Shown here: one piece after another, positions 8,701-42,645 of the stretch
Position numbering within the stretch: the first letter of the stretch is position 1
How the letters are laid out: the number at the start of each line of letters is the position of its first letter
Assembly: GCA_000002435.2 (NCBI GenBank)
Contig: CM018793.1
Origin: Giardia intestinalis
Taxonomy: Eukaryota
Strand: one strand, 5' to 3'
Length of the DNA: 64,000 nucleotides
Notes under the pieces: generated by a model
Databases searched by the model: none
What the model saw: only the letters and a program-made list of their open reading frames with translations
What the model was told of the DNA's origin: nothing
Made by a program: the position numbers and the translations under genes

Positions 8701-10671
8701 GAGCTCCTTGAGCTCTGCGATCTGGTTATCGCGCGCCTCGATCTCATCGGTCAGCGCCCTGATCTTCTCCTCGAGGGCGCGGATGGCCGTCTCGTCTGCG
8801 GGGGCGTCGCGCGACCTACCGCTGAGCTCCTTGACCTGCTGCTGGAGCTCCTCGATGCGCGCAAGGTACTCTGCAGCGTCTGCTCCCCGCGTGGCGTCTG
8901 CCTCCAGGGCGTCCACCCTTTCCTGGAGAGCCGCGCTGTTCTTCATCTCCTCCTGGATGCGGTCGCGGAGGAGCTCGATCTCGTCGTCGCGCTCGTCGAT
9001 GTCCTGCTTCGCGTTGGCGAGCTCGAACTGGAGGTCTGCGATCTGCTCGTTGAGCTCCTTGACCCTCTCGTCGTCGCCGCCCTGCGCGTCGGCGAGGAGC
9101 CTCTCCAGCCCTGCGATCTGCGCCTCGAGCTGGGCTACGCGTTTATCGCCCTCGGCAGACGACCTCTGGGCGCTCTCTGCGCGCATGACGAGGTCCTGGA
9201 GGCGGGCGATCTCCGAGTTCTTGGCGGCGATGATGGCGTCGAAGTCCGCCGCCTCGCCTCCCCTGGCCAGGGTCTCCTCGAGGCGGCTCTGGAGGGCCTC
9301 GAGCTCCCCGTCCTTGGCGAGGAGGGCCTGGCGGAGGCTCTCGACCTCCTCCTCGAGAATCTGCGTGGCGTACGCCTCGTCCTGGCTGGCGGCTGCCTGT
9401 TCCAGCTCGGCAATGCGTGCGTCGCGCTCATCGAGCATGGACCGGAGGCCTGCGAGTTCGTCCTCGAAGGCCCTGGTCTTCTCGACGATGGGCCGGAGCC
9501 CCGAGAGGTCGGACTCGCGCGCCTCCAGCTCCTCCCGGAGGGCGCTGATCTTGTTTTCGTAGTCTGCAAGAAGGGCCGCGTCTCCCGTGGGCGACGGGAC
9601 GGCGGTCAGGCGCTCGTTGAGGGCGCGGATGTCCCTCTCCTTCTCCGCGAGCTCGGACTGGAGCGCCCTGATCTTGTCCTTGAGGCCGTCGACGTCCTCG
9701 CCAGACCCGCCGGCGCTGAGCATTCCCTCCATGTCGGAGAGACGCTCCTTGAGGTCGCTGATGATGGCGTCCTTGTCGGCCGTCTCGGACTGGAGCCTGC
9801 TGATCTCGATGCGCAGCGTGGTGATGTTCTCCTCCATGTTCTTGACCTGGCCGTGCAGGGAAACGTTCTGGCCGATGACGATCGACGACTCGTCGTGCAG
9901 CGAGGCCAGCTTCAGCTCGAGCTGCATGATCTTGGACTCGAGCTCGTGCTCGAGCTGCGTCTTGGTCTGCGTGAGGGAGTCAGCCTGTCCGCCGGGGAAG
10001 CGGTGCGCGTCGATCAGAGAGAATGACAGGGAGAGGTCGAGGGCGGGGTTTCCGACCTGGGACGAGGAGAAGTTCATGAGCGAGGGGCGGGTGAACTCCG
10101 GAATCAGGTTCGCCTCATAGGACGCGAGGCACTGGACGATGTCGGTGTGCCCGTTCTCGGCCGCGAGCACGAACGCCGTCTTGTGGTCGTACGAGACGAT
10201 CTCCTTCTCGCGGACCACGAGGAGCTTCACCACGTCCGTGTGGCCGGCCGCCGCCGCGTACATCAGGGCGGTGCGCCCGCGCGCGTCTGTCTTGGCCTTG
10301 AGGTAGGGGAGCAGGTTGCTGACCGCCGCGGTCGACCCGTGCTCGGCGGCGAGCATGAGAGGCGTCATCTGGAAGTCGCCGTAGGTGGTGTTGACCTCAT
10401 AGGCGACGAGGCGCTTGCAGACGTCGCCCTTGTTGGCCTCGGCGGCGATCATGATGGCGGTCTTCCCCTCGCCGTTGACCATGCCGTTCTCGAAGAAGCC
10501 GAGGATCTTGACAAGCTCCACGTTCCCTTCGCGCGCGGCGATCATCAGGCCCGTCTCGCCGTCGCCGTTGACGGACTTGGCGTACTCTGCTGCGTGGTTG
10601 CGGATCAGCTCGACCTGGCCGGCCTGGATGGCCTCAAACCATTCCTCCACAGAAGACACCACTGCAGGCAT
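5788..10671 (-). CDS. ankyrin-repeat (about 5 repeats, N-terminal) plus ~1300-aa coiled-coil protein, Giardia 'protein 21.1'/coiled-coil cytoskeletal family-like
   Basis: Single 1627-aa ORF with ATG at 10669-10671. N-terminal ankyrin consensus (G-TALM-AA--GH--VV-LL). The remainder is E/L/A/R/K-rich heptad sequence. GAG/CTC-rich coding creates long spurious antisense ORFs. Confidence 0.8.
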   Translation of the reverse strand: MPAVVSSVEEWFEAIQAGQVELIRNHAAEYAKSVNGDGETGLMIAAREGNVELVKILGFFENGMVNGEGKTAIMIAAEANKGDVCKRLVAYEVNTTYGDFQMTPLMLAAEHGSTAAVSNLLPYLKAKTDARGRTALMYAAAAGHTDVVKLLVVREKEIVSYDHKTAFVLAAENGHTDIVQCLASYEANLIPEFTRPSLMNFSSSQVGNPALDLSLSFSLIDAHRFPGGQADSLTQTKTQLEHELESKIMQLELKLASLHDESSIVIGQNVSLHGQVKNMEENITTLRIEISRLQSETADKDAIISDLKERLSDMEGMLSAGGSGEDVDGLKDKIRALQSELAEKERDIRALNERLTAVPSPTGDAALLADYENKISALREELEARESDLSGLRPIVEKTRAFEDELAGLRSMLDERDARIAELEQAAASQDEAYATQILEEEVESLRQALLAKDGELEALQSRLEETLARGGEAADFDAIIAAKNSEIARLQDLVMRAESAQRSSAEGDKRVAQLEAQIAGLERLLADAQGGDDERVKELNEQIADLQFELANAKQDIDERDDEIELLRDRIQEEMKNSAALQERVDALEADATRGADAAEYLARIEELQQQVKELSGRSRDAPADETAIRALEEKIRALTDEIEARDNQIAELKELVDGAPAQPVETDPAQLTALEEENGRLKDELQALNDALEALRKSGADEASGLRGQVAHLNKEVSDLKEALANARASGDASDVERLVELQEQLEDAQEQLLSLKDRYDCAVAEMEDMRRELEQKPVGSTVYTDEPGASSEDLDRLKEELDALREEVQVLNEELEVMHGQNREQKDELNRLNGALDAKESLIADLKAQLDSTVPQDDARIKILEDEIADLRGTVAARDDAIRGLEEKTARLAELEQLAADKGKEVADKEHSLRRLEDEVRQLNDALCELREKPLSVAPSDQSGAEYVDAQTEISDVDPEEQAKVSSILDFDDGLVQKVDELQALVNALTGENDHYKGEHARIMAEMDALKEDLRNGRLRSDSLEGDKERLMKQVRDLTDLVESLRKDLGAPQDQGEVAALRQEVADLRSRVDELIDAAKGKDETIEQLEKELAIARASAENTERLSELLAEVEGYKAKLGESKEMVDSLLAQLASKDAELAGATTGLRAVTDDDGAELAKARVASLENEVAELRGQLNAKLAEIDAVHKNLVDSDAEAARLREELGGLRVQLEAAQVPEDTERVRMLEDQLQDARKELAELRAALEAKEMETEGLRAELATADPELANKLEASEATVRELRESAEALQDKLHALSDSRAADGDLQKLVEQLEKDLSGAKELVAERDATIDELKQRLRDTEEYDDLKERIAELDDEIAVLNDGLKDKDAEIAELREQLEAQPTATTVYPESGEEVGDAAALREVQDENAALKDELEAKRSLIDELQDEIDGLKQQCSDLKDEMIKLDSANNDKITTLQCSLDESRKQIADLQEEVEVLKNTANDIDPAVVESLQEELRKLQEELDDRENTITELQGLLDDQEGKNAEVSAQIEALNRELEEARDANLHSANDERTMALEAEIASLQESLDKANEDLAQKTDECGKAISETGNLRKAVEYYKKLVDDIRAGIVVLDDNLSALDLQ

Positions 10672-21900: not shown

Positions 21901-24900
21901 TATGCGCGGTATCAGCTTTGGCCCTCTAGATGGGTAGTTTGGGGCATTCTGCACTAGCCTTGACTTCTGAGACGCTAAGACCTGTGAATAGCACAGAACG
22001 AGGCATGGTATGTATAGACGGTGCGTTGTCTTCATGAATGTGCACTACAGCCTCCAAATGCACGCAGCTAGACCAGAATGGACGGATCAGCTAGCTTACA
22101 CAGGCGACCTGCCCACCACCATGTTTGCTGCGATGAGGGGCTGCATCTACCCAACAGACTGAGCAGAGATTACAGCAGCTTCTCTACTGATGCATGCATG
22201 GCCATGCGCCGCCCTAGTAGGTGGTGTAGATACTATAGTATCTACCCTGCCTGTTGTTAATAAAGAATATCAGTTAGTCGCACTGGACACTCTTCTAGGA
22301 AGGCATACAGTCTCTATGGTTGCAATTTCACCAGTTGTAATGACAACTGAACACTAGGAAAGGTGCCATAGAACGATCTGCTGCCTTTCAAGGTGAGACA
22401 TAAATCCACACATAAGCCAAAAGCAGAACTCTATACATCGATTGTTATGATCTTAGTGCGATGACCGGTTTGAGCTATGATACACTCCTCACTTATCTAT
22501 GTACTCGTTTGGATCCTCGCTGCTAGTGTTGGACAGGACTGCGAGGGGGCCTGTCTCTGGTTGCGTTGACCTTATGGTATCTAGTCCTTGGTGACACACC
22601 TCAGCGGATGAGGATGTTATTCGGGTACTCAAAAGACTATCCGTGCATAACGGTTTCTGGAGAGCCGGTCCGCATGGAGAATATAGGGTGACCAGCGAAT
22701 CAGTGAAGTAAGACTGGCGTCAGAGAGGCCAGCTACTAGCCCGGATTGCAGCAGAGACGCCTGTAGCGCCTCTCTGGTCTCCGAGTGGTAAAGATCGCGG
22801 GGTCTACAGATAAGTTGAAAGCTGCTTTTTGATTTTATATATTCCTAACAGCGTAATATTTATCAGCGGCCTGCCTCGTCTGAAGTTGAAGAAGTTTACC
22901 TTCTCTCCGCATATTGGCGAGGATCTATTGTAGAGGCATGCTGTGCAGGCTGGTACCAGTCGGCGTGGTTGCTGTCCACAGATTTCTCACCTGCGTCTTC
23001 TCATGGCAGATGATCGCTAGCAGCGCTCTCAGCTCACGTGGCTAAGTCTACGGTGCATCTCCACTTCGGCCAAGGATTGTATACGTATTATATAGTCTGG
23101 ATTGCTCATCAGCCAGGATAGTGTGGTCCACTCCTGTTCTCTGCTTGCCTATCTCGTGCAACCATTTATTAATGACCTTTCCAGATCAATGGGTACTTCC
23201 ATCAGTTCTGTAAAGGCATACGTCACGCAGACGGCCACTACAAGCCAGACTCCTGTCTACCAAGGAAAAGGGTCAATAGATTTATCATCTGGGCATCCGT
23301 TATGTCCCTTATACAGATCTGGCAGGTCTTGGGCTCCTCAGCGTTTCTTCGTAAGTCTCTGGCTGAAGCCCGTATGCATATCGTTACTGACAAGCGCCTT
23401 AGCTTCATCTGACCACTTAGGGCATTAGATCCTTTGCCCTGCACAGTGGGTATGCTCAGCGTGGGAGGTACACAACCAGCATCAGCTTTCTCGGCTCATT
23501 GTCTGAGTAATACTGTCATTGCTTCTCAATTTAACTAGCAACTCAACTAATGGTCTCAAAAGCAGATAACAACTCACCAGCAGGTAGTCAGCAGTGACCG
23601 TGACGCGTACTTTCGCTAAGGCGCAGACTTCTAAGCAGGAGCATGAGGTAGGCCTCTGCCATTCTGTGGTCCTGTTAATTCCTCGGATAGTAAAGATTGG
23701 AACAGCTCAGGCTAGCATTGGATGCATCCGGGTCTCTATCTATCTCCGTCGTCTGGAGTGTGTTTGACTTCATAAACTGAAAGGAGCTGTACCGTGCTCG
23801 TGCCTGCAAGCCTCAGCTAGGCAGAGCTATATCTCAGTTGTTGCGTGGGGGTAGCCACACGCCCCGCAGAGCCTGCAAGGAACATTGTGGCCCAATAGAG
23901 CCTTTTACCTATCGAATGCAAGCTGTGACCTCATAGGCGCAGGCTTTCTTATAGTAACCAGTCAGCTACAGAGTTCGTCCACTCGTATAAACCCAACGGA
24001 TGGAGGGCGATATCAGTCTCGTCGATCGTCTACAACGCACAGCAGTCGAGTCCTACAGGTGGACAGAGGTCATCCAGCCCGCATCAATAAACATCGATAG
24101 GAAGCCTTCACAACAATGAATGAGTGAGTACAGTAGCCATTTTTCTATTGAAGATTCTCCAACCACTGAGGTCCAGGACAGCCTCCTACAGGATTCTTGG
24201 CAGGATCGTATCCGATGCATGTTTGTGGCACTCCCGCTCAAGGTGTGTGTTGCTAGACTTTCACTTCCTACACTGGCCTGTGAACATTGAGCTCTGGGCT
24301 CTAGCGGGGCCATGCTGGAGATCACAAGGATATGGTGTCTTCGGAGACTATTCGGCTTCCGTAGCCACACAATAAGGATCTACTTCTCGCAGTAGCATCA
24401 CAGAGAGGTGTATAGAACCATACCACGCCCTCTACCAGGTGACATGATGCATGAATCAAGAGGTAGGACGCTTGCACCGATCGGCATATCTACCATGATC
24501 AGACACAGATTGGCCCGAAAGTAGCAGCTAAATGTTGTTCGACTCCCTTATCAGTGGATGGGCACCCAACTACCCTGGTACCCACACGAGGCCACGCTGA
24601 GTATGGGCCTGGTCACTGGCTATCAAACCAGCACAGTCCCTCTGGATCTCGTCTCTCATGAAGACAGCCTAACACAGAGAGCTCTGTGTCACTCACATCA
24701 ACAGACCAAGGTACCGCAGGCCTGGGTGCTTCTGGTACGATAGAGCGGTAGCATCAGAGTAATTCAAGGGGTGATGGGAGTCCTCTCCATCAGCTCAGGA
24801 GACAGCACGGTCTGGGCAGTGCTTCCCCTTGACTAGACACGGGAGGGCTGACCCGTCTCTGAGTTCTACTTGCCACTCTGTCATGCAATGAAGAACCCTA

Positions 24901-25350
24901 ATGGTACTTAGTACAGGGGGCCAGTAGTAACGCCATGCATCCACCAGATCAGAGTGCCCCATGAGCCTGTCTCTGTTGATCCACACCTTCTACGAACTTT
25001 AGTGACTGATGCAATCTTCTCTCGAGATCCTCCGAGGATTTGTCTCTGAGTGTAACTCCCCCACGACAGCTAAGGGTCACGGGCATAACCGAAGGACGAG
25101 AGCGATCCAGGGGGAGAGCACCGGCGCATGGGGTCCGCAGGGGCCGGTTCCCAGGGATGCAAGGACGGCAGATCGCTTGCTGTCTAAGCAGTAATTAGAT
25201 CCATGTTTTGTCATGACGGCAAGGTTGGCACCGGATCAAGTTCTTTGGATCTTTAACACAATATCTGACAAATGCATTGTTCTATTGGCTGAACATAGGA
25301 TTGCTGACAAAATTTTGTTTCCGCATTGGCATAACCCGAACAGAACTTCA

Positions 25351-27234
25351 ATGTTGTTGGTAGTATTCTATCTTGTGTTGAGTGCTCTCGCGGCAGCATG
25401 CAAGCAAGCACAAAATTGTGTAGAGGATAAGTGCGAAATGATCGGAGACACCGAAATTTGCACTCAGTGCACAGCAGGAAAAGTCCCAATTGATGGAGTA
25501 TGTACAGCAGTTGGTAGTGCCGCTGGTAAATGTACAAAGGCTGAAGGACAAGCAGTAGATGACACTGATAAAACATGTGGAAAATGCGTAGACGCATACT
25601 TCATGTACAAAGGCGGATGTTATCTGGCCGGTGCAGCTGGACCGGGTACTGGTACTAAAATGTGCAAGCAGGCTGCTGGTGGCAAGTGTACGCAAGCTGC
25701 TGATGCGAAGAACTACTTCATTCCACCAGCAAATACAGACGATACTCATGATTCTGTCGTTTGGTGCGGTGATGAAATAGGCGTAACACTTAGTAGTACT
25801 CAGTATAAGGGTGTTGCTAAGTGCCTAGTATGTGATGCTCCCGGTGGCGCTGGTGCTGCAACGTGCACAACCTGTGAAGACGGGTACTTTGGTGCTACTT
25901 GTGAAAAATGCCATGAAAGTTGTAGGACATGTGAAGCTGCAGAAGAGAATAAGTGCAAGTCGTGTACAGATGGCTACTTCCTTGGAGCAACCAATGGAGC
26001 CGCAGGTAAGTGCCTTAAATGTAACTCTAAAACAGAGGAAGGCTGGCACGGAGTTGACAACTGTGCTAAGTGCACGTCATCTAATACGCAAAACACTCCT
26101 GCGACATGCACTGAATGCGTTGCAAATTTCTATCTAAAACCAGCTGCGGATGCGACTCCTTCTAGTTGCGTCACAGAAACGGGGTGCGGTGACGGATACT
26201 TCCCAACTATTGTTGATGAGGTCAAGAAATGTATCGCTTGCAGTGCAGCTACAAATGGTGGCATAGATGACTGCAAAAAGTGTTCTCTCAAAACAACGTC
26301 TGCGAAGGCAGGAGTAGAGATCGTATGCACTGAATGTAATACTAAATGGCTCAGTCCTCTAAGAGACGCATGTTTGGATAGCTGTCCTCCTGGAACACAT
26401 GCTGATTCTGGCAATATTTGTCCTTTATGTCATAGTACATGTGCAGAATGTGATGGTAATGCAGGAGCCAACTTTTGTACAGTTTGTTATCCAGGGTTTG
26501 TATTAAAGCGCGGTGAAACTGGCAACATGGGCATGTGCGTTCCCGAGTGCACTGGAGAGTACGCAGAGAACTGCGAAGCTGACCAATGCACGGCCGTTAT
26601 AGGTAGCTCCAAGTATTGCAGCAGGTGTAAGGTTGGATTTGCCCCAGTGGATGGCGTCTGTGTATCGACGGCTTCAAGAGCAGTAACTGGATGCACAGCA
26701 GGAAACGATGGGACATGTACGGCCTGCACAGGTACATATTTCTTACAATCTGGTGGGTGCTATCAGTCAACAACGTATCCTGGTAATACCCTCTGCTCTA
26801 TCGCTGCTAGTGGAAAGTGCACAACATGCGCCAATGGGCAAACAGCAGATAGCAATTTGGGTTCTTGCCCAGCATGTCCAGCTGGCTGCTCAAAGTGCGC
26901 AACTAGTGGTAGTCCCAAAGCATGCTCAGAGTGTTTCCCTGGATACTATAAATCTGGGGATAGCTGCGCAAGATGCGATACTAATAACAGCCAAATTACC
27001 GGTGTCGCTAATTGCGTAAGCTGTGCTCCTCCATCTAATGGTCAAGGATCTGTCATCTGCTACATAACGCGACAAGAGACCGACGATGGCACTGGCGACA
27101 ACACAGGTGGAAGCACGAACAAGAGCGGCCTCTCCACGGGTGCCATCGCGGGGATCTCCGTGGCTGTGATTGTTGTTGTAGGTGGCCTCGTCGGCTTCCT
27201 CTGCTGGTGGTTTATCTGCCGTGGAAAGGCGTAG
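25351..27234 (+). CDS. variant-specific surface protein (VSP), copy 1
   Basis: N-terminal MLLVVFYLVLSALAAA signal, numerous CxxC motifs, GGCY motifs, C-terminal TM and invariant CRGKA-stop. The in-frame upstream ATG at 25213 is probably not used. Confidence 0.9.
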   Translation: MLLVVFYLVLSALAAACKQAQNCVEDKCEMIGDTEICTQCTAGKVPIDGVCTAVGSAAGKCTKAEGQAVDDTDKTCGKCVDAYFMYKGGCYLAGAAGPGTGTKMCKQAAGGKCTQAADAKNYFIPPANTDDTHDSVVWCGDEIGVTLSSTQYKGVAKCLVCDAPGGAGAATCTTCEDGYFGATCEKCHESCRTCEAAEENKCKSCTDGYFLGATNGAAGKCLKCNSKTEEGWHGVDNCAKCTSSNTQNTPATCTECVANFYLKPAADATPSSCVTETGCGDGYFPTIVDEVKKCIACSAATNGGIDDCKKCSLKTTSAKAGVEIVCTECNTKWLSPLRDACLDSCPPGTHADSGNICPLCHSTCAECDGNAGANFCTVCYPGFVLKRGETGNMGMCVPECTGEYAENCEADQCTAVIGSSKYCSRCKVGFAPVDGVCVSTASRAVTGCTAGNDGTCTACTGTYFLQSGGCYQSTTYPGNTLCSIAASGKCTTCANGQTADSNLGSCPACPAGCSKCATSGSPKACSECFPGYYKSGDSCARCDTNNSQITGVANCVSCAPPSNGQGSVICYITRQETDDGTGDNTGGSTNKSGLSTGAIAGISVAVIVVVGGLVGFLCWWFICRGKA

Positions 27235-27242
27235 ACTTAGGT

Positions 27243-27249
27243 AGTAAAC
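27243..27249 (+). terminator. Giardia-type polyadenylation signal AGTAAAC (AGTRAAY) 9 nt after the VSP stop codon
   Basis: tag(27232-27234) ...gt AGTAAAC a. The AGTRAAY consensus is established for Giardia 3' end formation. Confidence 0.6.
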
Positions 27250-27694
27250 ACGTCACTGTATATGGCTTATTACGCTATTCTGCCGGGGCTATCTGAGGAT
27301 CGCCCAGAGATCGTGTGAGTGAGTCCGCTCCTTTCTGACTAGTCCGGAGACGAGGGTTGGTCATGAATAACATGACGGAGAGTCCTCTCCAGTGATATAT
27401 CCAGAGCCTGGTGCGCTCCTCTGCCATTTCGCGGGGGTGTACTCAATCCGAGTGTGTGCGTCACTCACCCTGGGATTCAGCTTACCTATCCATTTGCATC
27501 GTCCACCAGTGGCGCCTCTCGTTGGTCTTCCTTCGTGGTGGGTGAAGCTCCGGTCGCCGTCCTTTTTTAGATGCCCCGTCTGTCAGGGGCTGCCACCGGG
27601 CTCTCCGCTGGCTGGGCCCTCGGTGTCCGGGCAGCTGTGGCTCGAGTCAGCGCTCCCACAGTCCAGTCACCTGTGTCTCAGTGGGCCGGCTGGT

Positions 27695-27715
27695 GGGTGG
27701 GGCGGGGGTATGGGG
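27695..27715 (+). other. canonical G-quadruplex motif G3-T-G4-C-G5-TAT-G4 at the inner end of the left arm
   Basis: Sequence gggtggggcgggggtatgggg read directly. Lies ~5 bp from the arm/spacer junction. Confidence 0.6.
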
Positions 27716-27718
27716 CGG

Positions 27719-29419
27719 TGAGGCTGGAGGGGACTGGTGGGACCAGGTGGTGGGTGTTCGTATGCGCCCCTGACCTTTTAGTGGACTGGGGTGATCCCCG
27801 CTCTGTTTGCCAAGGTGGTTGTGTCTGATCTTCAACCATCGTTGCACTCCCGAGACAGAGGCACCGACGATCGTGTCGTGTCCCCCTGAGTGAGCGCCTC
27901 CCTTGGCCCCTGCATGCCTCGGGCAGTACTGCTCTGTCTGGCTGGTGCATGAGGGCTGAGGCAGACCATCGCAGCCTCTCCTGTTGCTCGCTGATGCTCT
28001 GTGACGGGTCTGCTGGGCCCCTGGCATGCCCTGTCCGGTGCCTCGACGATAGTTCACCTCGGGCCAGCAGGGGTGTGGATGACCTTGTGAATGGGATGGG
28101 GTTCTCTCATGCCTCTAGTGTGATGACTCAAAAGACTAACACGGTGGGGCATCGGTGACTGCACTGTCCCCGTGGTCAGCTGTGCTGCTCCTGGTGGGTC
28201 CTTGTTGTGGAGCGCTGTGTATCATCCATAGGCAGAGGTGAGCCTCCTTGGTCTCAGGATGCTCTACCATCAGAGAGGAGCACGCTGGGGGTCACCCAAC
28301 ATCACCTGCTGTGCCCTCGGGAGTTCCCGGTGTGGTCTACTAACCTTAACACCTCTCGTGGCTCTGATGACCCCTCGGGGAGAGCCGGGGTGTCCTATGC
28401 CAGGGAGGCGTGCACCTTCCTGCATGAGCTGGGCCATCCACTGCACTGCCCCCAAGGAGGTCTGCTATGAGAGGCAGTGGGATGATTGACAGCCCCTCAG
28501 AGTGGGTGGAGGGCGCTCGTGGTCGTCTCTGTGACCGGGCATCACTCTGATAGTCGGCTCTGTGCCTGCGTGGTGCTCAGAGGTCACCTGTCTGCCTCAT
28601 TGCCTGCTGGACAGCCGGCCTCTTGTGTCATCCGAAGGCCTCCTCACTCCTCTGGCTGCTGCCCCCTCGGGTCATCGATGGAGACCAGCGGAGTCTTCGG
28701 TGGGTCTGGTGCCTGTCTGGGTGTCATGGGGGCTGGCAGCTATCAGGGCTCTGCCACTGCTCACCTGCCTGGAGTGTGCCTCCCTTGGGTCTGCTGTGCT
28801 GTAGTGTTTGAGTCCTCTGGTTTCCTATCAGGCCCTGGTTGTGAGGGTGACCCCACCTGGCCCTCTGATGTCCCTGTGGATGAGCATAGCAGCTGTCTGG
28901 CTGGGGATCTCTGGTGCCCGTGGCTGTTGCTGCCTCTCGGGTGCTCGGGTGGTTGCCTGGCACTCTCGTATGGGACACAGTCAGCGTGTCCCGAGCAGAC
29001 CCTAGTCCTCTCTGGGTCATGCACAGTCTGTCCGTGTGTGGATGGTCCTCCTGCACTCAGGTCCATCTGTGCATACTATCACTCAGCCTCGAGAGCAGGC
29101 CAGTGCCAGTTACTAGGGCTGCTGTCAGAGGGAGTCGTCTGCCACTACCATCGCTCGAGCAGCCCTGCAGATCAGGCTGGTTGCTGTGCACCCTCATGGC
29201 AGGGCTGCCTGACTCCCTTGGTCATCCTCTCTGTCCCGGTGTGCACGGCTCCTGAGGGTTGCCTGGGTGGAGGCACTCACAGACCACGAGCACACAGAGG
29301 GATGAGTCACAGGTAGACAGCCCCCAGTCACCACAGCTGCGATCACCCCAGTTCACCGGACCCAGGGGCACATACGAGCACCACCAACCTCAGCCCCCAC
29401 CAGAGCCCCTCCAGTCCCA
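27719..29419. other. unique ~1.7-kb GC-rich spacer between inverted arms. Low-complexity, no credible gene
   Basis: Not self-complementary around centre 28569. Overlapping Cys/Gly/Pro/Ser-rich pseudo-ORFs on both strands. Confidence 0.6.
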
Positions 29420-29422
29420 CCG

Positions 29423-29443
29423 CCCCATACCCCCGCCCCACCC
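29423..29443 (-). other. mirror G-quadruplex motif (C-rich on + strand) at the inner end of the right arm
   Basis: Sequence ccccatacccccgccccaccc on the + strand. Confidence 0.6.
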
Positions 29444-29888
29444 ACCAGCCGGCCCACTGAGACACAGGTGACTGGACTGTGGGAGCGCTGACTCGAGCCA
29501 CAGCTGCCCGGACACCGAGGGCCCAGCCAGCGGAGAGCCCGGTGGCAGCCCCTGACAGACGGGGCATCTAAAAAAGGACGGCGACCGGAGCTTCACCCAC
29601 CACGAAGGAAGACCAACGAGAGGCGCCACTGGTGGACGATGCAAATGGATAGGTAAGCTGAATCCCAGGGTGAGTGACGCACACACTCGGATTGAGTACA
29701 CCCCCGCGAAATGGCAGAGGAGCGCACCAGGCTCTGGATATATCACTGGAGAGGACTCTCCGTCATGTTATTCATGACCAACCCTCGTCTCCGGACTAGT
29801 CAGAAAGGAGCGGACTCACTCACACGATCTCTGGGCGATCCTCAGATAGCCCCGGCAGAATAGCGTAATAAGCCATATACAGTGACGT

Positions 29889-29895
29889 GTTTACT
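29889..29895 (-). terminator. poly(A) signal AGTAAAC for VSP copy 2
   Basis: Mirror of 27243-27249. Confidence 0.6.
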
Positions 29896-29903
29896 ACCTA
29901 AGT

Positions 29904-31787
29904 CTACGCCTTTCCACGGCAGATAAACCACCAGCAGAGGAAGCCGACGAGGCCACCTACAACAACAATCACAGCCACGGAGATCCCCGCGATGGCACCC
30001 GTGGAGAGGCCGCTCTTGTTCGTGCTTCCACCTGTGTTGTCGCCAGTGCCATCGTCGGTCTCTTGTCGCGTTATGTAGCAGATGACAGATCCTTGACCAT
30101 TAGATGGAGGAGCACAGCTTACGCAATTAGCGACACCGGTAATTTGGCTGTTATTAGTATCGCATCTTGCGCAGCTATCCCCAGATTTATAGTATCCAGG
30201 GAAACACTCTGAGCATGCTTTGGGACTACCACTAGTTGCGCACTTTGAGCAGCCAGCTGGACATGCTGGGCAAGAACCCAAATTGCTATCTGCTGTTTGC
30301 CCATTGGCGCATGTTGTGCACTTTCCACTAGCAGCGATAGAGCAGAGGGTATTACCAGGATACGTTGTTGACTGATAGCACCCACCAGATTGTAAGAAAT
30401 ATGTACCTGTGCAGGCCGTACATGTCCCATCGTTTCCTGCTGTGCATCCAGTTACTGCTCTTGAAGCCGTCGATACACAGACGCCATCCACTGGGGCAAA
30501 TCCAACCTTACACCTGCTGCAATACTTGGAGCTACCTATAACGGCCGTGCATTGGTCAGCTTCGCAGTTCTCTGCGTACTCTCCAGTGCACTCGGGAACG
30601 CACATGCCCATGTTGCCAGTTTCACCGCGCTTTAATACAAACCCTGGATAACAAACTGTACAAAAGTTGGCTCCTGCATTACCATCACATTCTGCACATG
30701 TACTATGACATAAAGGACAAATATTGCCAGAATCAGCATGTGTTCCAGGAGGACAGCTATCCAAACATGCGTCTCTTAGAGGACTGAGCCATTTAGTATT
30801 ACATTCAGTGCATACGATCTCTACTCCTGCCTTCGCAGACGTTGTTTTGAGAGAACACTTTTTGCAGTCATCTATGCCACCATTTGTAGCTGCACTGCAA
30901 GCGATACATTTCTTGACCTCATCAACAATAGTTGGGAAGTATCCGTCACCGCACCCCGTTTCTGTGACGCAACTAGAAGGAGTCGCATCCGCAGCTGGTT
31001 TTAGATAGAAATTTGCAACGCATTCAGTGCATGTCGCAGGAGTGTTTTGCGTATTAGATGACGTGCACTTAGCACAGTTGTCAACTCCGTGCCAGCCTTC
31101 CTCTGTTTTAGAGTTACATTTAAGGCACTTACCTGCGGCTCCATTGGTTGCTCCAAGGAAGTAGCCATCTGTACACGACTTGCACTTATTCTCTTCTGCA
31201 GCTTCACATGTCCTACAACTTTCATGGCATTTTTCACAAGTAGCACCAAAGTACCCGTCTTCACAGGTTGTGCACGTTGCAGCACCAGCGCCACCGGGAG
31301 CATCACATACTAGGCACTTAGCAACACCCTTATACTGAGTACTACTAAGTGTTACGCCTATTTCATCACCGCACCAAACGACAGAATCATGAGTATCGTC
31401 TGTATTTGCTGGTGGAATGAAGTAGTTCTTCGCATCAGCAGCTTGCGTACACTTGCCACCAGCAGCCTGCTTGCACATTTTAGTACCAGTACCCGGTCCA
31501 GCTGCACCGGCCAGATAACATCCGCCTTTGTACATGAAGTATGCGTCTACGCATTTTCCACATGTTTTATCAGTGTCATCTACTGCTTGTCCTTCAGCCT
31601 TTGTACATTTACCAGCGGCACTACCAACTGCTGTACATACTCCATCAATTGGGACTTTTCCTGCTGTGCACTGAGTGCAAATTTCGGTGTCTCCGATCAT
31701 TTCGCACTTATCCTCTACACAATTTTGTGCTTGCTTGCATGCTGCCGCGAGAGCACTCAACACAAGATAGAATACTACCAACAACAT
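29904..31787 (-). CDS. variant-specific surface protein (VSP), copy 2, identical to copy 1 and convergent with it
   Basis: Identical 673/627-aa translation. The two stop codons are 2.67 kb apart, tail-to-tail. Confidence 0.9.
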   Translation of the reverse strand: MLLVVFYLVLSALAAACKQAQNCVEDKCEMIGDTEICTQCTAGKVPIDGVCTAVGSAAGKCTKAEGQAVDDTDKTCGKCVDAYFMYKGGCYLAGAAGPGTGTKMCKQAAGGKCTQAADAKNYFIPPANTDDTHDSVVWCGDEIGVTLSSTQYKGVAKCLVCDAPGGAGAATCTTCEDGYFGATCEKCHESCRTCEAAEENKCKSCTDGYFLGATNGAAGKCLKCNSKTEEGWHGVDNCAKCTSSNTQNTPATCTECVANFYLKPAADATPSSCVTETGCGDGYFPTIVDEVKKCIACSAATNGGIDDCKKCSLKTTSAKAGVEIVCTECNTKWLSPLRDACLDSCPPGTHADSGNICPLCHSTCAECDGNAGANFCTVCYPGFVLKRGETGNMGMCVPECTGEYAENCEADQCTAVIGSSKYCSRCKVGFAPVDGVCVSTASRAVTGCTAGNDGTCTACTGTYFLQSGGCYQSTTYPGNTLCSIAASGKCTTCANGQTADSNLGSCPACPAGCSKCATSGSPKACSECFPGYYKSGDSCARCDTNNSQITGVANCVSCAPPSNGQGSVICYITRQETDDGTGDNTGGSTNKSGLSTGAIAGISVAVIVVVGGLVGFLCWWFICRGKA

Positions 31788-34700
31788 TGAAGTTCTGTTC
31801 GGGTTATGCCAATGCGGAAACAAAATTTTGTCAGCAATCCTATGTTCAGCCAATAGAACAATGCATTTGTCAGATATTGTGTTAAAGATCCAAAGAACTT
31901 GATCCGGTGCCAACCTTGCCGTCATGACAAAACATGGATCTAATTACTGCTTAGACAGCAAGCGATCTGCCGTCCTTGCATCCCTGGGAACCGGCCCCTG
32001 CGGACCCCATGCGCCGGTGCTCTCCCCCTGGATCGCTCTCGTCCTTCGGTTATGCCCGTGACCCTTAGCTGTCGTGGGGGAGTTACACTCAGAGACAAAT
32101 CCTCGGAGGATCTCGAGAGAAGATTGCATCAGTCACTAAAGTTCGTAGAAGGTGTGGATCAACAGAGACAGGCTCATGGGGCACTCTGATCTGGTGGATG
32201 CATGGCGTTACTACTGGCCCCCTGTACTAAGTACCATTAGGGTTCTTCATTGCATGACAGAGTGGCAAGTAGAACTCAGAGACGGGTCAGCCCTCCCGTG
32301 TCTAGTCAAGGGGAAGCACTGCCCAGACCGTGCTGTCTCCTGAGCTGATGGAGAGGACTCCCATCACCCCTTGAATTACTCTGATGCTACCGCTCTATCG
32401 TACCAGAAGCACCCAGGCCTGCGGTACCTTGGTCTGTTGATGTGAGTGACACAGAGCTCTCTGTGTTAGGCTGTCTTCATGAGAGACGAGATCCAGAGGG
32501 ACTGTGCTGGTTTGATAGCCAGTGACCAGGCCCATACTCAGCGTGGCCTCGTGTGGGTACCAGGGTAGTTGGGTGCCCATCCACTGATAAGGGAGTCGAA
32601 CAACATTTAGCTGCTACTTTCGGGCCAATCTGTGTCTGATCATGGTAGATATGCCGATCGGTGCAAGCGTCCTACCTCTTGATTCATGCATCATGTCACC
32701 TGGTAGAGGGCGTGGTATGGTTCTATACACCTCTCTGTGATGCTACTGCGAGAAGTAGATCCTTATTGTGTGGCTACGGAAGCCGAATAGTCTCCGAAGA
32801 CACCATATCCTTGTGATCTCCAGCATGGCCCCGCTAGAGCCCAGAGCTCAATGTTCACAGGCCAGTGTAGGAAGTGAAAGTCTAGCAACACACACCTTGA
32901 GCGGGAGTGCCACAAACATGCATCGGATACGATCCTGCCAAGAATCCTGTAGGAGGCTGTCCTGGACCTCAGTGGTTGGAGAATCTTCAATAGAAAAATG
33001 GCTACTGTACTCACTCATTCATTGTTGTGAAGGCTTCCTATCGATGTTTATTGATGCGGGCTGGATGACCTCTGTCCACCTGTAGGACTCGACTGCTGTG
33101 CGTTGTAGACGATCGACGAGACTGATATCGCCCTCCATCCGTTGGGTTTATACGAGTGGACGAACTCTGTAGCTGACTGGTTACTATAAGAAAGCCTGCG
33201 CCTATGAGGTCACAGCTTGCATTCGATAGGTAAAAGGCTCTATTGGGCCACAATGTTCCTTGCAGGCTCTGCGGGGCGTGTGGCTACCCCCACGCAACAA
33301 CTGAGATATAGCTCTGCCTAGCTGAGGCTTGCAGGCACGAGCACGGTACAGCTCCTTTCAGTTTATGAAGTCAAACACACTCCAGACGACGGAGATAGAT
33401 AGAGACCCGGATGCATCCAATGCTAGCCTGAGCTGTTCCAATCTTTACTATCCGAGGAATTAACAGGACCACAGAATGGCAGAGGCCTACCTCATGCTCC
33501 TGCTTAGAAGTCTGCGCCTTAGCGAAAGTACGCGTCACGGTCACTGCTGACTACCTGCTGGTGAGTTGTTATCTGCTTTTGAGACCATTAGTTGAGTTGC
33601 TAGTTAAATTGAGAAGCAATGACAGTATTACTCAGACAATGAGCCGAGAAAGCTGATGCTGGTTGTGTACCTCCCACGCTGAGCATACCCACTGTGCAGG
33701 GCAAAGGATCTAATGCCCTAAGTGGTCAGATGAAGCTAAGGCGCTTGTCAGTAACGATATGCATACGGGCTTCAGCCAGAGACTTACGAAGAAACGCTGA
33801 GGAGCCCAAGACCTGCCAGATCTGTATAAGGGACATAACGGATGCCCAGATGATAAATCTATTGACCCTTTTCCTTGGTAGACAGGAGTCTGGCTTGTAG
33901 TGGCCGTCTGCGTGACGTATGCCTTTACAGAACTGATGGAAGTACCCATTGATCTGGAAAGGTCATTAATAAATGGTTGCACGAGATAGGCAAGCAGAGA
34001 ACAGGAGTGGACCACACTATCCTGGCTGATGAGCAATCCAGACTATATAATACGTATACAATCCTTGGCCGAAGTGGAGATGCACCGTAGACTTAGCCAC
34101 GTGAGCTGAGAGCGCTGCTAGCGATCATCTGCCATGAGAAGACGCAGGTGAGAAATCTGTGGACAGCAACCACGCCGACTGGTACCAGCCTGCACAGCAT
34201 GCCTCTACAATAGATCCTCGCCAATATGCGGAGAGAAGGTAAACTTCTTCAACTTCAGACGAGGCAGGCCGCTGATAAATATTACGCTGTTAGGAATATA
34301 TAAAATCAAAAAGCAGCTTTCAACTTATCTGTAGACCCCGCGATCTTTACCACTCGGAGACCAGAGAGGCGCTACAGGCGTCTCTGCTGCAATCCGGGCT
34401 AGTAGCTGGCCTCTCTGACGCCAGTCTTACTTCACTGATTCGCTGGTCACCCTATATTCTCCATGCGGACCGGCTCTCCAGAAACCGTTATGCACGGATA
34501 GTCTTTTGAGTACCCGAATAACATCCTCATCCGCTGAGGTGTGTCACCAAGGACTAGATACCATAAGGTCAACGCAACCAGAGACAGGCCCCCTCGCAGT
34601 CCTGTCCAACACTAGCAGCGAGGATCCAAACGAGTACATAGATAAGTGAGGAGTGTATCATAGCTCAAACCGGTCATCGCACTAAGATCATAACAATCGA

Positions 34701-39817: not shown

Positions 39818-39853
39818 TTGAGTGGTACGTCTTCGAGTAGATTTTTTAAAGCC

Positions 39854-40909
39854 ATGAACTGTGAGGGCTGTGGTACTGGGACACCGATGATTAGGCACTC
39901 CATGACCCTTAAGCGCCTCTGCAGGAAGTGCTTTCTCCGTGCAATCGAAGATGAAGTTCAGCGAACGGTGGAGATGCACAGCCTGGTCCGTCCGGGCGAG
40001 AGCATCGCTCTTGGAGTGAGCGGAGGAAAAGACTCGAGTGTTATGCTTCATATTCTACACACCCTGCGGCTTCGTTGTCAGGATGTCTACGATGGTGTTC
40101 GCTTTGTTATGGTTGCAGTCAACGAAGGAATCCAAGGCTATCGCGGCGAGTCGCTAGCGTGTCTTCAGCGCCTCCATAAAAAGTATCCGTATGAGCTGGA
40201 GATAGTGGGCTTTGAAGAGCGATACGGACGTACGCTAGACCAACTTGTCAACACTGTGAACGGAAATTCATGCACTGATACATTTGCCCCACTTAAGGCC
40301 GATCTGGAGGACGTTAACGACACGGGCCGGCCACAGCCAACGGCGAAGACAGCAACTGCCTGCTCGTTCTGTGGTATCCTCCGACGAAATTCTCTTTCTT
40401 ACGGGAGTCTCCAGACACAATGTACAAAGGTGGCTACCGGGCACAATGCTGACGACAATGCCGAGACCGTTCTACTGAACTTAATCAGAGGTGACGCTGC
40501 AAAGCTAGTAAGGTGCAGCGAGCCATTATCTGACTTGAATCAAGGGGTGGCACGCATAAAGCCCCTCTGCAATATAGCACAGCGAGACATTGTCATATAC
40601 GCCCACCTACAACGCCTGGACTACTTTAGTGTGGAGTGTCCTTATGCAACAACGGCACTACGCGGTAAGCCAAGAAGCTTCCTAACCAACCTTTGTACCA
40701 GACCAGCGTACAGCGACGCGGCTCTTCGTATAATTCGGTCAACTCGGAAGCTGCGCCTTAAGACCACACATGAGACCCAGAAGCTCACTAGTCTTCATCT
40801 GTGCCCCTCGTGTCAGAGTCCTGTCTCCACAACTCGCTGCCAGTGCTGTGACATACGCACGGCAAAGACTGGGGACGACCTTAAGCGAGCCGCCAAGTGC
40901 AGGCCATAA
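39854..40909 (+). CDS. CTU1: cytoplasmic tRNA 2-thiolation protein 1 (CTU1/NCS6, PP-loop ATPase)
   Basis: N-terminal CxxC zinc finger (MNCEGCG...CRKC), PP-loop SGGKDS, GHNADD and C-terminal CxxC pairs. Supplied start 39818 is TTG, directly abutting the upstream stop; first ATG is at 39854. Confidence 0.8.
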   Translation: MNCEGCGTGTPMIRHSMTLKRLCRKCFLRAIEDEVQRTVEMHSLVRPGESIALGVSGGKDSSVMLHILHTLRLRCQDVYDGVRFVMVAVNEGIQGYRGESLACLQRLHKKYPYELEIVGFEERYGRTLDQLVNTVNGNSCTDTFAPLKADLEDVNDTGRPQPTAKTATACSFCGILRRNSLSYGSLQTQCTKVATGHNADDNAETVLLNLIRGDAAKLVRCSEPLSDLNQGVARIKPLCNIAQRDIVIYAHLQRLDYFSVECPYATTALRGKPRSFLTNLCTRPAYSDAALRIIRSTRKLRLKTTHETQKLTSLHLCPSCQSPVSTTRCQCCDIRTAKTGDDLKRAAKCRP

Positions 40910-41061
40910 TCTAATCAGGGCGTCTAATTTACATTCGATTCACAATTGTTAACAGCTTACTCAAATGTTTACTATGGTTAGTATGATTAATATACTTAGT
41001 CTACGATCTTATGAATCAAGTAAACGCCGTCTTGTAAAACGTACACCTGCAATAAAATAAA

Positions 41062-42645
41062 ATGATCAATTTAAAGGACAAAGCAGAGCAACTGATAAAC
41101 GACTGGCTGGACCTGGACTTCTGGCCGGCCACTAGGGCCAAAGCACTGGAGATGCTCGCTAATGAGTCGTATGCCCAAATACAAAAAGACTTCGATCCAC
41201 GAAACAGGCTTGAGATACAATCTCATGGCCTTCAGGGGGATTATGGGCCCGGCTTCAATAAGCTTAACGAGCTTGTGATTGCTCAGACGGCGCAGTCAAT
41301 CTATTACTATTGTCTAAGAGTTATTGGAGAAACAGAACTCAAAATACACGGTATTGGAATAGGTTATGATTGGTCTCCACATGCCAAGGACTTTGCCAAG
41401 GTAAGCGCTGCGGTGTTCTTACTGTACGGGGTGCGGGTCTATATGGTCAGCGAGCCGGTATCCGCGTCATATGCTGAACACCTGAACAAGCATTACATGT
41501 GTGGGTGCGGATTTATGGCCACGGAAACACACATCTCGCGCACAGAGTGCCGGTATATTATCTACGGAATTGGCTATGGCTCTGCTCTTTCTGCGCCGCA
41601 CAGCACAAATGTGAGCGAAATGATTTCAGCAAGCAATAGCCACATTTTTGTCCCTCATCCGGGGCTCAAGTCACTTGACAAAGTTCTGGAAAAGGGGATC
41701 GAAACACGCCTTCTTGTAATGGTTGACCAGGAGCATGAGGTGTCAAAGGTCTATCATAAAAAGCTCAGGCTTCTGAAATATTTCGATCGAGAATATCGCG
41801 AAAAGACTAAGCGGAGCTTCCGGATAGGGTGTTTCCTAATAGGATTGTACGATATCTGCAAGGTGACCAATATTCTTCAGAATCTATTTCAGTTTTCGAC
41901 GGATGCAATACAGTCTCGTTTCGTCTTTCTTGAGAGTGTTCAATCTAATGCTGTGCCCCCAGAACAGTGCATTGCTACCGCTTGCAAACAAGCTAATATA
42001 ATCAATTCCCGTGCAGAAGCCGACCGGGTACCTCCAATTAAGATTATCATATCTATAGATATTAACGCAGAGGCGATTTGTTTAGCAGAACTGATTGATT
42101 CCCCTTCATCCTCTGCACATTGCCAACCACAGTGGCACATCTATCGCAAGGAAGATATCAACACCTTTGCCATGAATTGGTGTGTAGAAAACCTCAATGG
42201 AAATCCCACGGTTCTGGCACGTCTGAAGAAGCACAGACTTACCTATGGATGCAGCACATATCCACCTAGTCACTCTATACAGACTGACAGTCCGAAACTC
42301 ATAGCAGCTCAATGCAGTGGTGCAGCTTGCAAGAGTGACTCTAGCAATAGCAGACACCCATGGGGCCTTTCCAGAGAAGAAGAGGAGGAGACTGAATGCG
42401 GCGCGGTGTGTGGGCGGTACCAAGGATTCCAGAACACAGCTGAGGAAATTATCACAGCAAGAGACGGAGCAATAACATTCGGCGTTCTCGCAGAGCTACT
42501 AATAGATCTGTATGAATTTTCTGGAACTGGAATTAACATTAGGAGGCCAGCTAACGAGCAACGCAGCTCCAATACGTTTGGTGGATATCTTAGCAGCTTT
42601 ACCCAGGGTATCACGCCACAAGCATGCCAAGTTGAAAGCGTTTAG
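41062..42645 (+). CDS. divergent phosphoglucomutase/phosphopentomutase (PGM2)-family homolog with substituted catalytic loop (candidate pseudoenzyme)
   Basis: N-terminal collinearity with the PGM2 family: VIGYDWS...FAKVSAAVFLLYGVRVYMVSEPVSASYAEH. The catalytic GxMxTASHNP loop reads GFMATETHIS. No DGDGDR metal loop was seen. Confidence 0.45.
   Translation: MINLKDKAEQLINDWLDLDFWPATRAKALEMLANESYAQIQKDFDPRNRLEIQSHGLQGDYGPGFNKLNELVIAQTAQSIYYYCLRVIGETELKIHGIGIGYDWSPHAKDFAKVSAAVFLLYGVRVYMVSEPVSASYAEHLNKHYMCGCGFMATETHISRTECRYIIYGIGYGSALSAPHSTNVSEMISASNSHIFVPHPGLKSLDKVLEKGIETRLLVMVDQEHEVSKVYHKKLRLLKYFDREYREKTKRSFRIGCFLIGLYDICKVTNILQNLFQFSTDAIQSRFVFLESVQSNAVPPEQCIATACKQANIINSRAEADRVPPIKIIISIDINAEAICLAELIDSPSSSAHCQPQWHIYRKEDINTFAMNWCVENLNGNPTVLARLKKHRLTYGCSTYPPSHSIQTDSPKLIAAQCSGAACKSDSSNSRHPWGLSREEEEETECGAVCGRYQGFQNTAEEIITARDGAITFGVLAELLIDLYEFSGTGINIRRPANEQRSSNTFGGYLSSFTQGITPQACQVESV

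Follow-up and report, generated by a model that had tools for sequence, protein, structure and literature searches.

Gene and protein features

We analyzed a 64,000-nucleotide stretch of the Giardia intestinalis genome (contig CM018793.1, assembly GCA_000002435.2; referred to as the window), which carries on its plus strand, at exactly 41062..42645, an uninterrupted open reading frame (ORF) of 527 amino acids (aa) running from an ATG to a stop codon. An exact-sequence look-up identified this ORF as XP_001708115.1 / KAE8305195.1 / UniProt A8BC13 of G. intestinalis WB C6, which marks the window as DNA of assemblage A. The gene is thus already annotated, with the enzyme name "Phosphomannomutase-2", and its orthologs in assemblages A, B and E are labeled "Phosphomannomutase-2" or "Phosphoglucomutase / Phosphomannomutase" in NCBI and UniProt. 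The protein, referred to as A8BC13 here, is a divergent relative of the PGM2-type phosphoglucomutases (PGMs) with a rewritten active site, and consists of the following parts, where loops 0 to 3 denote the remnants of the canonical active-site loops and pLDDT is the predicted local distance difference test score of the structural model described below.

41062..42645, plus strand: complete ORF, 527 aa and stop codon (ORF list, exact-sequence look-up)
41062..41586, plus strand: domain I-like region, aa 1-175, the best conserved part (PF02878, hhalign, dN/dS, model)
41227..41238, plus strand: loop 0 remnant GLQG, aa 56-59 (alignment columns 86-92)
41509..41538, plus strand: loop 1 remnant GFMATETHIS, aa 150-159, aligned with canonical GVMVTASHNP
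41545..41559, plus strand: ECRYI, aa 162-166, aligned with canonical DNGYK (alignment columns 210-214)
41587..42096, plus strand: domain II-like region, aa 176-345, collinear with canonical domain II (no PF02879 score)
42058..42075, plus strand: loop 2 (metal loop) remnant DINAEA, aa 333-338, aligned with canonical DPDADR (alignments)
42097..42255, plus strand: first part of what is left of domain III, aa 346-398, with two confidently modeled helices and KE at the GN motif
42256..42453, plus strand: degenerate domain III core, aa 399-464, rich in Ser and Glu, with lineage-specific indels and a pLDDT of about 30
42397..42432, plus strand: remnant of loop 3 (sugar-binding loop), CGAVCGRYQGFQ, aa 446-457, in the place of canonical ..EE.IG..
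42454..42525, plus strand: last homologous element, aa 465-488, an ARDG turn and the helix GVLAELLIDLYEF (alignment, model, tblastn)
42526..42645, plus strand: variable, non-homologous C-terminal tail, aa 489-527, and stop codon, replacing a domain IV of about 160 aa

Family assignment and relationship to the canonical Giardia PGM

PF02878 (PGM_PMM_I) was the only Pfam family that matched A8BC13 at E<=10, with 27.8 bits against a gathering threshold of 22.5 over aa 55-157; PF02879, PF02880 and domain IV gave no match. An earlier reading of this DNA from its letters alone (the sequence-only reading) had proposed alignment to PF02878, PF02879 and PF02880 as a check; of these, only the first gave a match. 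A8BC13 had no match in NCBIfam, and searches of the PDB chain sequences, with A8BC13 (phmmer) and with a profile of the six orthologous sequences (hmmsearch), returned only noise (E>0.1). The family membership of A8BC13 is detectable only through Pfam, large profiles or the Giardia paralog.

An exhaustive HMMER search of 1.84 billion representative proteins with the ortholog profile returned 792 proteins at E<=1e-3, and those inspected among them were four-domain PGM2-type alpha-D-phosphohexomutases of about 600 aa. The top match that was not an ortholog (P0026, 255 bits) led, in a second search started from it, to the G. muris "Phosphoglucomutase" (P0177) and to a G. duodenalis cluster (P0178) whose WB member, P0290, is XP_001708370 / E2RU18 / AAK69602 (655 aa). 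As a proteomics supplement lists GL50803_17254 as "Phosphomannomutase-2, length=655", we equate P0290 with GL50803_17254, the gene that is taken as the Giardia PGM in metabolic papers (PMC3483818; PMC5450421). P0026 itself was rejected as a positional ortholog of A8BC13; its neighborhood differs and it sits in the canonical clade.

In BLASTP comparisons, A8BC13 was 35% identical to this canonical enzyme over 498 aa (314 bits, E 1e-102), followed by the G. muris PGM (298 bits), the P0026 group (approx. 210-223 bits), Hexamita (119 bits) and other eukaryotes (66-120 bits). Its best matches are the PGM2-type enzymes of Giardia, G. muris and other Fornicata, and then metazoan PGM2/PGM2L1. When the ortholog profile was aligned to a profile of 35 canonical PGM2 sequences with hhalign, the match covered 350 columns with a probability of 100% and an E value of 6e-51, and both BLASTP and hhalign placed the sequences collinearly through domain II to the last helix of domain III. 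Together with the Pfam and profile-search results, these scores place A8BC13 in the family well beyond what chance would give. In the alignments, TETH matches TASH column for column, DINAEA occupies the columns of DPDADR, and Q58 stands where GLRG has its invariant Arg. The collinearity of the N-terminal region with the PGM2/phosphopentomutase family, as claimed by the sequence-only reading, is thus supported by PF02878, BLASTP and hhalign alike. The block GIGIGYDWSPHAKDFAKVSAAVFLLYGVRVYMVSEPVSASYAEH quoted there is present, and the "VIGYDWS" quoted with it is a one-letter slip for "GIGYDWS".

A neighbor-joining tree grouped the A8BC13 clade with the canonical PGMs of the Giardia lineage (100% bootstrap), leaving Hexamita and other Fornicata outside, and placed it as the long-branched sister of all Giardia-lineage canonical PGMs. 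BLASTP, hhalign and this grouping identify A8BC13 as a Giardia-lineage paralog of the canonical PGM2-type enzyme GL50803_17254. Collinearity between the two proteins extends from their first residue to residue 494 of the canonical enzyme; both have the same fold in domains I and II, and they have in common a number of lineage-specific stretches (YYYCLR, NK.Y.C.CG, PIK.I...D, NWC.EN..NNP and ELLIDLYE). However, GL50803_17254 carries FGTAGLR, TASHNP, DNGYK, PNPEE, DPDADR, LTGFKW, YEESIGY and RPSGTEPK, none of which is found in A8BC13, and has a domain IV of 160 aa, which A8BC13 lacks. GL50803_17254 is also abundant in proteomes, and A8BC13 evolves approx. 2.7 times faster (identity between WB and assemblage B of 70%, as compared to 89% for GL50803_17254).

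Substitution and deletion of active-site elements

We aligned six pseudo-PGM sequences (i.e., A8BC13 and five orthologs) with 87 canonical PGM2-type sequences and surveyed the columns that were at least 90% conserved among the latter. Only 30 of these 124 columns were kept in all six pseudo-PGM sequences, and every catalytic or ligand-binding element of the active site was substituted or deleted in all six. A pattern search of the same six sequences found no D-x-D-x-D, SHNP, GExSG or SGTEP anywhere.

At loop 0, canonical FGTAGLRG is replaced by IQSHGLQG, with the Arg found in all 87 canonical sequences changed to Gln (Gln58) in 6/6 pseudo-PGM sequences. At loop 1, A8BC13 has Glu155 for Ala, Thr156 for the catalytic Ser, Ile158 for Asn and Ser159 for Pro. 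The catalytic Ser is present in 87/87 canonical sequences, and Thr takes its place in all six pseudo-PGM sequences, of which five keep His157; the Asn position holds Ile or Thr, and Pro has given way to Ser in four sequences and is kept in two, while T154-E155-T156 is invariant across the clade. The Lys of DNGYK is Ile or Val (position 166) in all six. The metal loop keeps its first Asp, with Asn and Glu at the other two Asp positions and Ala at that of the Arg, giving D-I-N-A-E-A in all six sequences, with D333, N335, A336, E337 and A338 invariant. Elsewhere in the pseudo-PGM clade, D-x-R has become D-x-S, GVG has become LYD, PNPEE has become ATACK, GN has become KE and VSS has become IQT; LTGFKW is erased, EExIG has become YQxFQ, with CGAVC before it, and RxSGTEPKxKxY is wholly gapped. 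Within loop 3, C446, G447, A448, C450, Y453, Q454 and G455 are invariant, so that this loop forms a conserved island within a variable linker.

The three motif-level claims of the sequence-only reading, i.e., GLQG in place of GLRG, GFMATETHIS in place of the phosphoserine loop and the lack of an Asp-rich metal loop, all hold in these alignments, and DINAEA can now be assigned to the place of the last. A PGM-family match was found, and no alignment placed a Ser together with a DxDxDR loop in this protein. Beyond that reading, we found that the sugar-binding loop is lost, that domain III is largely degenerate and that domain IV is deleted; what had been described as a rewritten catalytic loop is thus only one part of the loss of the entire active site.

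Domain architecture and predicted structure

An AlphaFold2 (AF2) model computed from a 93-sequence alignment, most of which consists of canonical PGM2 sequences, had a pLDDT of 77.5 and a predicted template modeling score (pTM) of 0.80. The model was confident for aa 1-398 (mostly 80-98) and for an isolated helix at aa 469-486, with scores of approx. 30 for aa 399-464 and 498-527. The domain I-like region scored approx. 90-98, except for values of 69-75 at aa 150-179, and the domain II-like region approx. 82-98, with one dip to 67 (aa 290-299). All 43 Foldseek matches of this model at E<1e-3 were phosphohexomutases, and the predicted fold is compatible with the family.

The canonical STVSSK and LTGFKW motifs are erased in the degenerate domain III core (aa 399-464), and the greater part of domain III is a variable and probably disordered linker. 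The last 15 aa of GVLAELLIDLYEF are nevertheless 80% identical to the canonical Giardia PGM (GVLTELLIDLYEH), amid a domain III that is otherwise unrecognizable, and this helix element is predicted with good confidence (pLDDT of 91 for aa 470-479 and 79 for aa 480-489); it may represent a retained packing or interaction element.

When the canonical enzyme was used as a tblastn query, homology covered canonical residues 1-494 (window 41071-42525), and canonical residues 495-655 had no match in any frame of the window or of the four orthologous loci; a query of canonical residues 480-655 matched only through its first 15 aa, i.e., the common helix. A domain IV hidden in another frame or further downstream was thereby rejected. 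Because tblastn finds nothing beyond residue 494 and the next gene, on the minus strand, begins only 255 nt past the stop codon, domain IV is deleted in A8BC13 and not hidden.

A8BC13 does not show the four-domain, heart-shaped fold of the family. In the model, domains I and II are intact and are followed by a helical stub of domain III, a variable linker rich in Ser and Glu in place of the former domain III sheet, a conserved helix and a short, unrelated tail.

Conservation and selection

Intact-frame orthologs of 504-527 aa were found in P15 (assemblage E, 88% identity), in assemblage B (70%) and in two further lineages represented by Logan assemblies, i.e., ERR3333383 (59%) and ERR3333381/SRR17450160 (54%). 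Synteny is kept in the five lineages, with a PP-loop tRNA 2-thiolation gene upstream of the PGM-like gene and, on its 3' side, genes of 673-684 aa and 498 aa on the opposite strand, followed by a kinesin gene on the plus strand.

Rates of nonsynonymous (dN) and synonymous (dS) substitution were estimated by the method of Nei and Gojobori. Between WB and P15, dN was 0.059 and dS 0.594, giving a dN/dS of 0.10 overall and of 0.04 in domain I. The pair ERR3333383 and ERR3333381 gave a dS of 1.0 and a dN/dS of 0.21. These were the only two usable pairs, as deeper comparisons were saturated (dS >1 or undefined) and unreliable. Over the pairs with estimable dS, dN/dS in domain I ranged from 0.04 to 0.16, and values for the linker (aa 401-445) were 0.3-0.8. 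The fraction of positions that were invariant among the five lineages was 58% for domain I, 45% for domain II, 12% for the linker, 8% for the tail and 40% for the whole protein; for the rewritten loops 1, 2 and 3 it was 60%, 62% and 54%, respectively. These data show that the A8BC13 gene is under purifying selection.

The loss of catalytic motifs, the deletion of a domain and the variable, probably disordered part of the protein could also be expected of a decaying pseudogene or an annotation artefact without function. However, the ORF is intact (504-527 aa) in five lineages in which synonymous sites are near saturation (dS 0.6 to >2), dN/dS is approx. 0.1 overall and 0.04 in domain I, and both synteny and the A/T-rich start context are kept. 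We thus rejected decay on the basis of dN/dS and the intact frames, and regard a functionless gene as scarcely credible. The loss of every active-site element together with purifying selection is what would be expected of a pseudoenzyme, not of a pseudogene.

The conservation of the rewritten loops, which equals that of the domain I core, could alternatively reflect a new function, in which the remodeled cleft (T154-E155-T156-H157, D333/N335/E337 and C446/C450/Y453/Q454) would serve as a new small-molecule, metal or catalytic site, e.g. as a metabolite sensor or for another phosphoryl-transfer or hydrolytic reaction. Loop 3 (CGAVC..YQG) is a conserved island in a linker that is only 12% invariant, and the three sites at which the canonical fold brings the loops together still bear polar, acidic and thiol side chains. 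However, searches of Pfam, NCBIfam and PDB sequences revealed no similarity to any other enzyme family, and the CxC that precedes loop 1 goes back to the canonical Giardia PGM (KCACG) and is hence no novelty. Moreover, loop 3 lies in a region with a pLDDT of approx. 30, so its proximity to loops 1 and 2 is uncertain. Overall, we consider such a new site quite improbable.

Distribution and age

Neither of the two protein database searches found an ortholog outside the G. duodenalis complex, where the gene was found in five lineages. The sequence-only reading had suggested a look at conservation in other diplomonads, and none was seen; the searches found no ortholog in G. muris, Hexamita, Spironucleus or other Fornicata, in which only the canonical enzyme is present. 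We also scanned, in six frames, 21 kb and 15 kb around the G. muris ortholog of the upstream gene (CTU1; P0308) and its relative P0309 with a pseudo-PGM profile and obtained no score, while the positive control scored 255 bits; a G. muris ortholog at the syntenic CTU1 locus was thus rejected. The G. muris CTU1 neighborhood is rearranged, with NifU downstream, and this result therefore represents absence of evidence at one locus, in addition to absence from the annotated proteome.

At sites where the canonical enzymes of G. duodenalis and G. muris differ and the pseudo-PGM clade is invariant, the clade has the G. duodenalis state at 16 sites and the G. muris state at 6. When only states absent from all outgroups were considered, it matched G. 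duodenalis at 6 sites and G. muris at 2. These character states weakly favor a duplication that took place in the G. duodenalis line once G. muris had split off, which we consider probable. The sister position of the clade in the neighbor-joining tree may result from long-branch attraction, and the tree was not used for dating.

Several gene-dense contigs from Giardia-like organisms were seen in these searches, i.e., L006 (Logan SRR31929897), P0175/P0176 and L008 (Logan SRR30592944). Their canonical PGMs are 53-61% identical to the PGMs of G. muris and G. duodenalis, and the CTU1 ortholog of L008 is, like that of G. muris, 52% identical to the CTU1 of the window, with flanking genes ordered as in G. 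muris. These contigs look like unsampled Giardia-related lineages that would be useful for dating the duplication.

Proposed function of A8BC13

In alpha-D-phosphohexomutases, domain IV binds the distal phosphate. It closes over the substrate, and the four active-site loops come from four domains (PMC7761743). A8BC13 retains neither domain IV nor the sugar loop, and the Arg residues of loop 0 and of the metal loop, the catalytic Ser and the DNGYK Lys are likewise absent; judging from these losses, it is very unlikely to carry out two-step phosphoryl transfer with reorientation of a bisphosphate intermediate. The suggestion of the sequence-only reading that mutase chemistry was lost is strengthened by these data, as every active-site element is changed or gone. 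From these losses, together with purifying selection and the conserved rewritten loops, we infer that A8BC13 no longer interconverts sugar phosphates and has instead a function in binding or regulation. The reading that we favor, and hold to be probable, is that A8BC13 is a lineage-specific, young, non-catalytic pseudoenzyme that acts by binding.

We propose that the gene would have originated by duplication of the canonical PGM2-type phosphoglucomutase GL50803_17254. The copy has lost the Arg of loop 0, the phosphoserine (now Thr) with the Asn-Pro next to it and the Lys of DNGYK; in the metal loop only one Asp of three is left and the Arg after them is gone, as is the Glu-Glu-Ser loop that binds the sugar. 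The core of domain III has for the most part disappeared, and domain IV, with its phosphate-binding RxSGTEPK loop, is missing altogether, so that what is left is a well-folded module of domains I and II, followed by a short helical piece of domain III and a flexible tail. The product may act as a regulatory, scaffolding or adaptor protein, probably binding through the remodeled former active-site cleft and a conserved surface of domain I; the canonical PGM or another protein of sugar metabolism would be a reasonable guess for its partner.

Several points weigh against the pseudoenzyme reading. The case for the loss of mutase activity is made from sequence, and the changes from Ser to Thr and from D-x-D-x-D to D-x-N-x-E, with His kept, are conservative and invariant, which would also fit a retained phosphoryl- or metal-binding site. 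With regard to the fold, the AF2 match indicates compatibility and is not independent of sequence homology, as its alignment is dominated by canonical PGM2 sequences; AF2 with the six orthologs alone gave a pLDDT of 32 and no usable model. Mitra et al. (2010; Glycobiology 20:1233) reportedly described an active, "deeply divergent" enzyme, Gl-PGM2, with both PGM and phosphomannomutase (PMM) activities, and this could be the product of the A8BC13 gene. Giardia is not known to have a PMM of the HAD type and needs mannose-1-phosphate for its glycosylphosphatidylinositol (GPI) anchors. The accessible literature does not name the gene behind Gl-PGM2, and our literature search found no paper that calls A8BC13 a pseudoenzyme. 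The "Phosphomannomutase" entries of one secretome study correspond to GL50803_17254 only, A8BC13 being absent, which says little either way.

A8BC13 could be an active PGM/PMM with a non-canonical site, possibly Gl-PGM2 itself, in which Thr156 would be the phosphoryl acceptor, His157 would be kept and D333/N335/E337 would act as Mg2+ ligands; it would then supply mannose-1-phosphate in a parasite without an HAD-type PMM. The database name "Phosphomannomutase-2", the conservative and invariant replacements at the phospho-site and metal site and the purifying selection on the rewritten loops are all consistent with such an enzyme. Giardia is also described as having no obvious PMM gene, and as having, besides a canonical PGM, a divergent one that converts mannose phosphates (PMC3465800); the canonical enzyme is GL50803_17254 (PMC3483818), and A8BC13 is the one other PGM2-type gene in WB. 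However, the loop-0 Arg, the DNGYK Lys, the metal-loop Arg, PNPEE, LTGFKW and EExIG, each present in 87/87 or nearly all canonical sequences, are gone, and domain IV is deleted. Moreover, as the long-branched sister of Giardia's own PGM, A8BC13 fits "divergent paralog" better than "deeply divergent", and there are other candidates for Gl-PGM2, i.e., phosphoacetylglucosamine mutase (GL50803_16069), whose T. brucei counterpart is known to be promiscuous (PMC3465800), and a beta-phosphoglucomutase gained by lateral transfer, which is present in G. intestinalis WB, GS and P15 and absent from G. muris (PMC7641422, Table 4). We therefore regard an active mutase as unlikely. If A8BC13 were Gl-PGM2, it would be a remarkable minimal mutase.

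Taken more broadly, the claim that the rewritten cleft is a working site, being either the real source of the PMM activity of Giardia or a new site that senses a metabolite or metal, or has a new catalytic activity, and so controls the metabolism of glycogen or cyst-wall sugars solely within the G. duodenalis complex, seems to us distinctly unlikely. If A8BC13 were the source of PMM activity, the canonical loops and domain IV would not be indispensable in this superfamily.

Comparison with known systems

A precedent for A8BC13 as a pseudoenzyme is PGM5 (aciculin), a vertebrate paralog of PGM1 and structural muscle protein that is, as A8BC13 probably is too, a paralog of an active enzyme kept by selection for a non-metabolic role; it is the accepted example of an inactive PGM paralog with a structural role (PMC7761743). 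However, all four domains are present in PGM5, as are the phosphoserine, the metal site and the ability to bind substrate, and its inactivity is put down to subtle loop differences (PMC7761743). PGM5 is of the PGM1 branch, whereas A8BC13 comes from the PGM2 branch, with all its loops rewritten and domain IV missing; the two are not orthologous, and A8BC13 is an independent and far more radical case. A8BC13 may thus offer a young, datable case of the change from enzyme to pseudoenzyme, in which all four loops and a domain were lost under strong constraint, as compared to PGM5, which is inactive with a near-intact site.

Parafusin and other protist PGM-like proteins, for which non-metabolic roles have been proposed, also belong to the PGM superfamily, and several were suggested to be inactive by sequence analysis (PMC2140215). 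None of the parafusin-type proteins is among the close matches of A8BC13, whose nearest relatives are PGM2-type enzymes of Giardia. PMM2/Sec53, of the HAD superfamily, has only the name "Phosphomannomutase-2" in common with A8BC13, which matches PF02878 only; superfamily and fold are different.

The enzyme name of A8BC13 should thus not be assumed to be right on sequence grounds, and metabolic reconstructions that count A8BC13 as an enzyme would be wrong if it is a pseudoenzyme. As A8BC13 is probably not a PMM, the candidates for this activity in Giardia would be narrowed to GL50803_17254, phosphoacetylglucosamine mutase and beta-phosphoglucomutase. The gene is specific to the Giardia complex that is pathogenic to mammals, and might therefore be used to mark lineages, or might hint at regulation that is peculiar to the parasite.

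A further PGM2 sequence with altered motifs was observed in Trichuris trichiura, where CDW56233.1 (P0027, "phosphoglucomutase 2", 1214 aa) is a tandem fusion of two PGM2 units. Unit 1 is canonical (TASHNP, DPDADR, SGTEPK) and unit 2 has TGSHDS, DPEADH and QGGTEKR; judging by these motifs, unit 2 may be another independently degenerating PGM2 copy.

Flanking sequences and other features of the window

The start codon of the A8BC13 gene is directly preceded by the following element.

41051..41061, plus strand: A/T-rich element AATAAAATAAA adjoining the ATG (AAAATAA[ATC] in 5/5 lineages)

This element resembles a Giardia initiator or promoter, and would fit the A-rich initiator that is usual in Giardia genes, as stated for G. 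muris (PMC7641422). A conserved CAAGTAAA motif was also observed approx. 40 nt 5' of the ATG of the PGM-like gene in all lineages (window approx. 41017-41024). No AGTRAA polyadenylation signal was found within 70 nt past the stop codon in any lineage, which is uninformative.

The 5' neighbor at 39818-40909 (plus strand) is a PP-loop cytoplasmic tRNA 2-thiolation gene of the CTU1/NCS6 type. As listed, its ORF has a TTG start and directly adjoins a 678-aa ORF that ends at 39817; its true start is therefore probably an internal ATG.

Elsewhere in the window, we observed an inverted duplication of 3639 bp with 99.67% identity (approx. 24138-27772 on the plus strand and approx. 29363-33000 on the minus strand), each arm of which contains an identical 673-aa ORF (25213..27234, plus strand, and 29904..31925, minus strand); approx. 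1.6 kb of sequence with higher GC (0.61) lies between the arms. A 1627-aa ORF at 5788-10671 (minus strand) begins with ankyrin-like repeats and continues as a Glu-, Ala- and Leu-rich, coiled-coil-like region. It lies in a high-GC block at approx. 6-12 kb (GC 0.60-0.67) with a strong AT skew (-0.38), and the many long overlapping ORFs on the opposite strand in this block are probably artefacts of composition.

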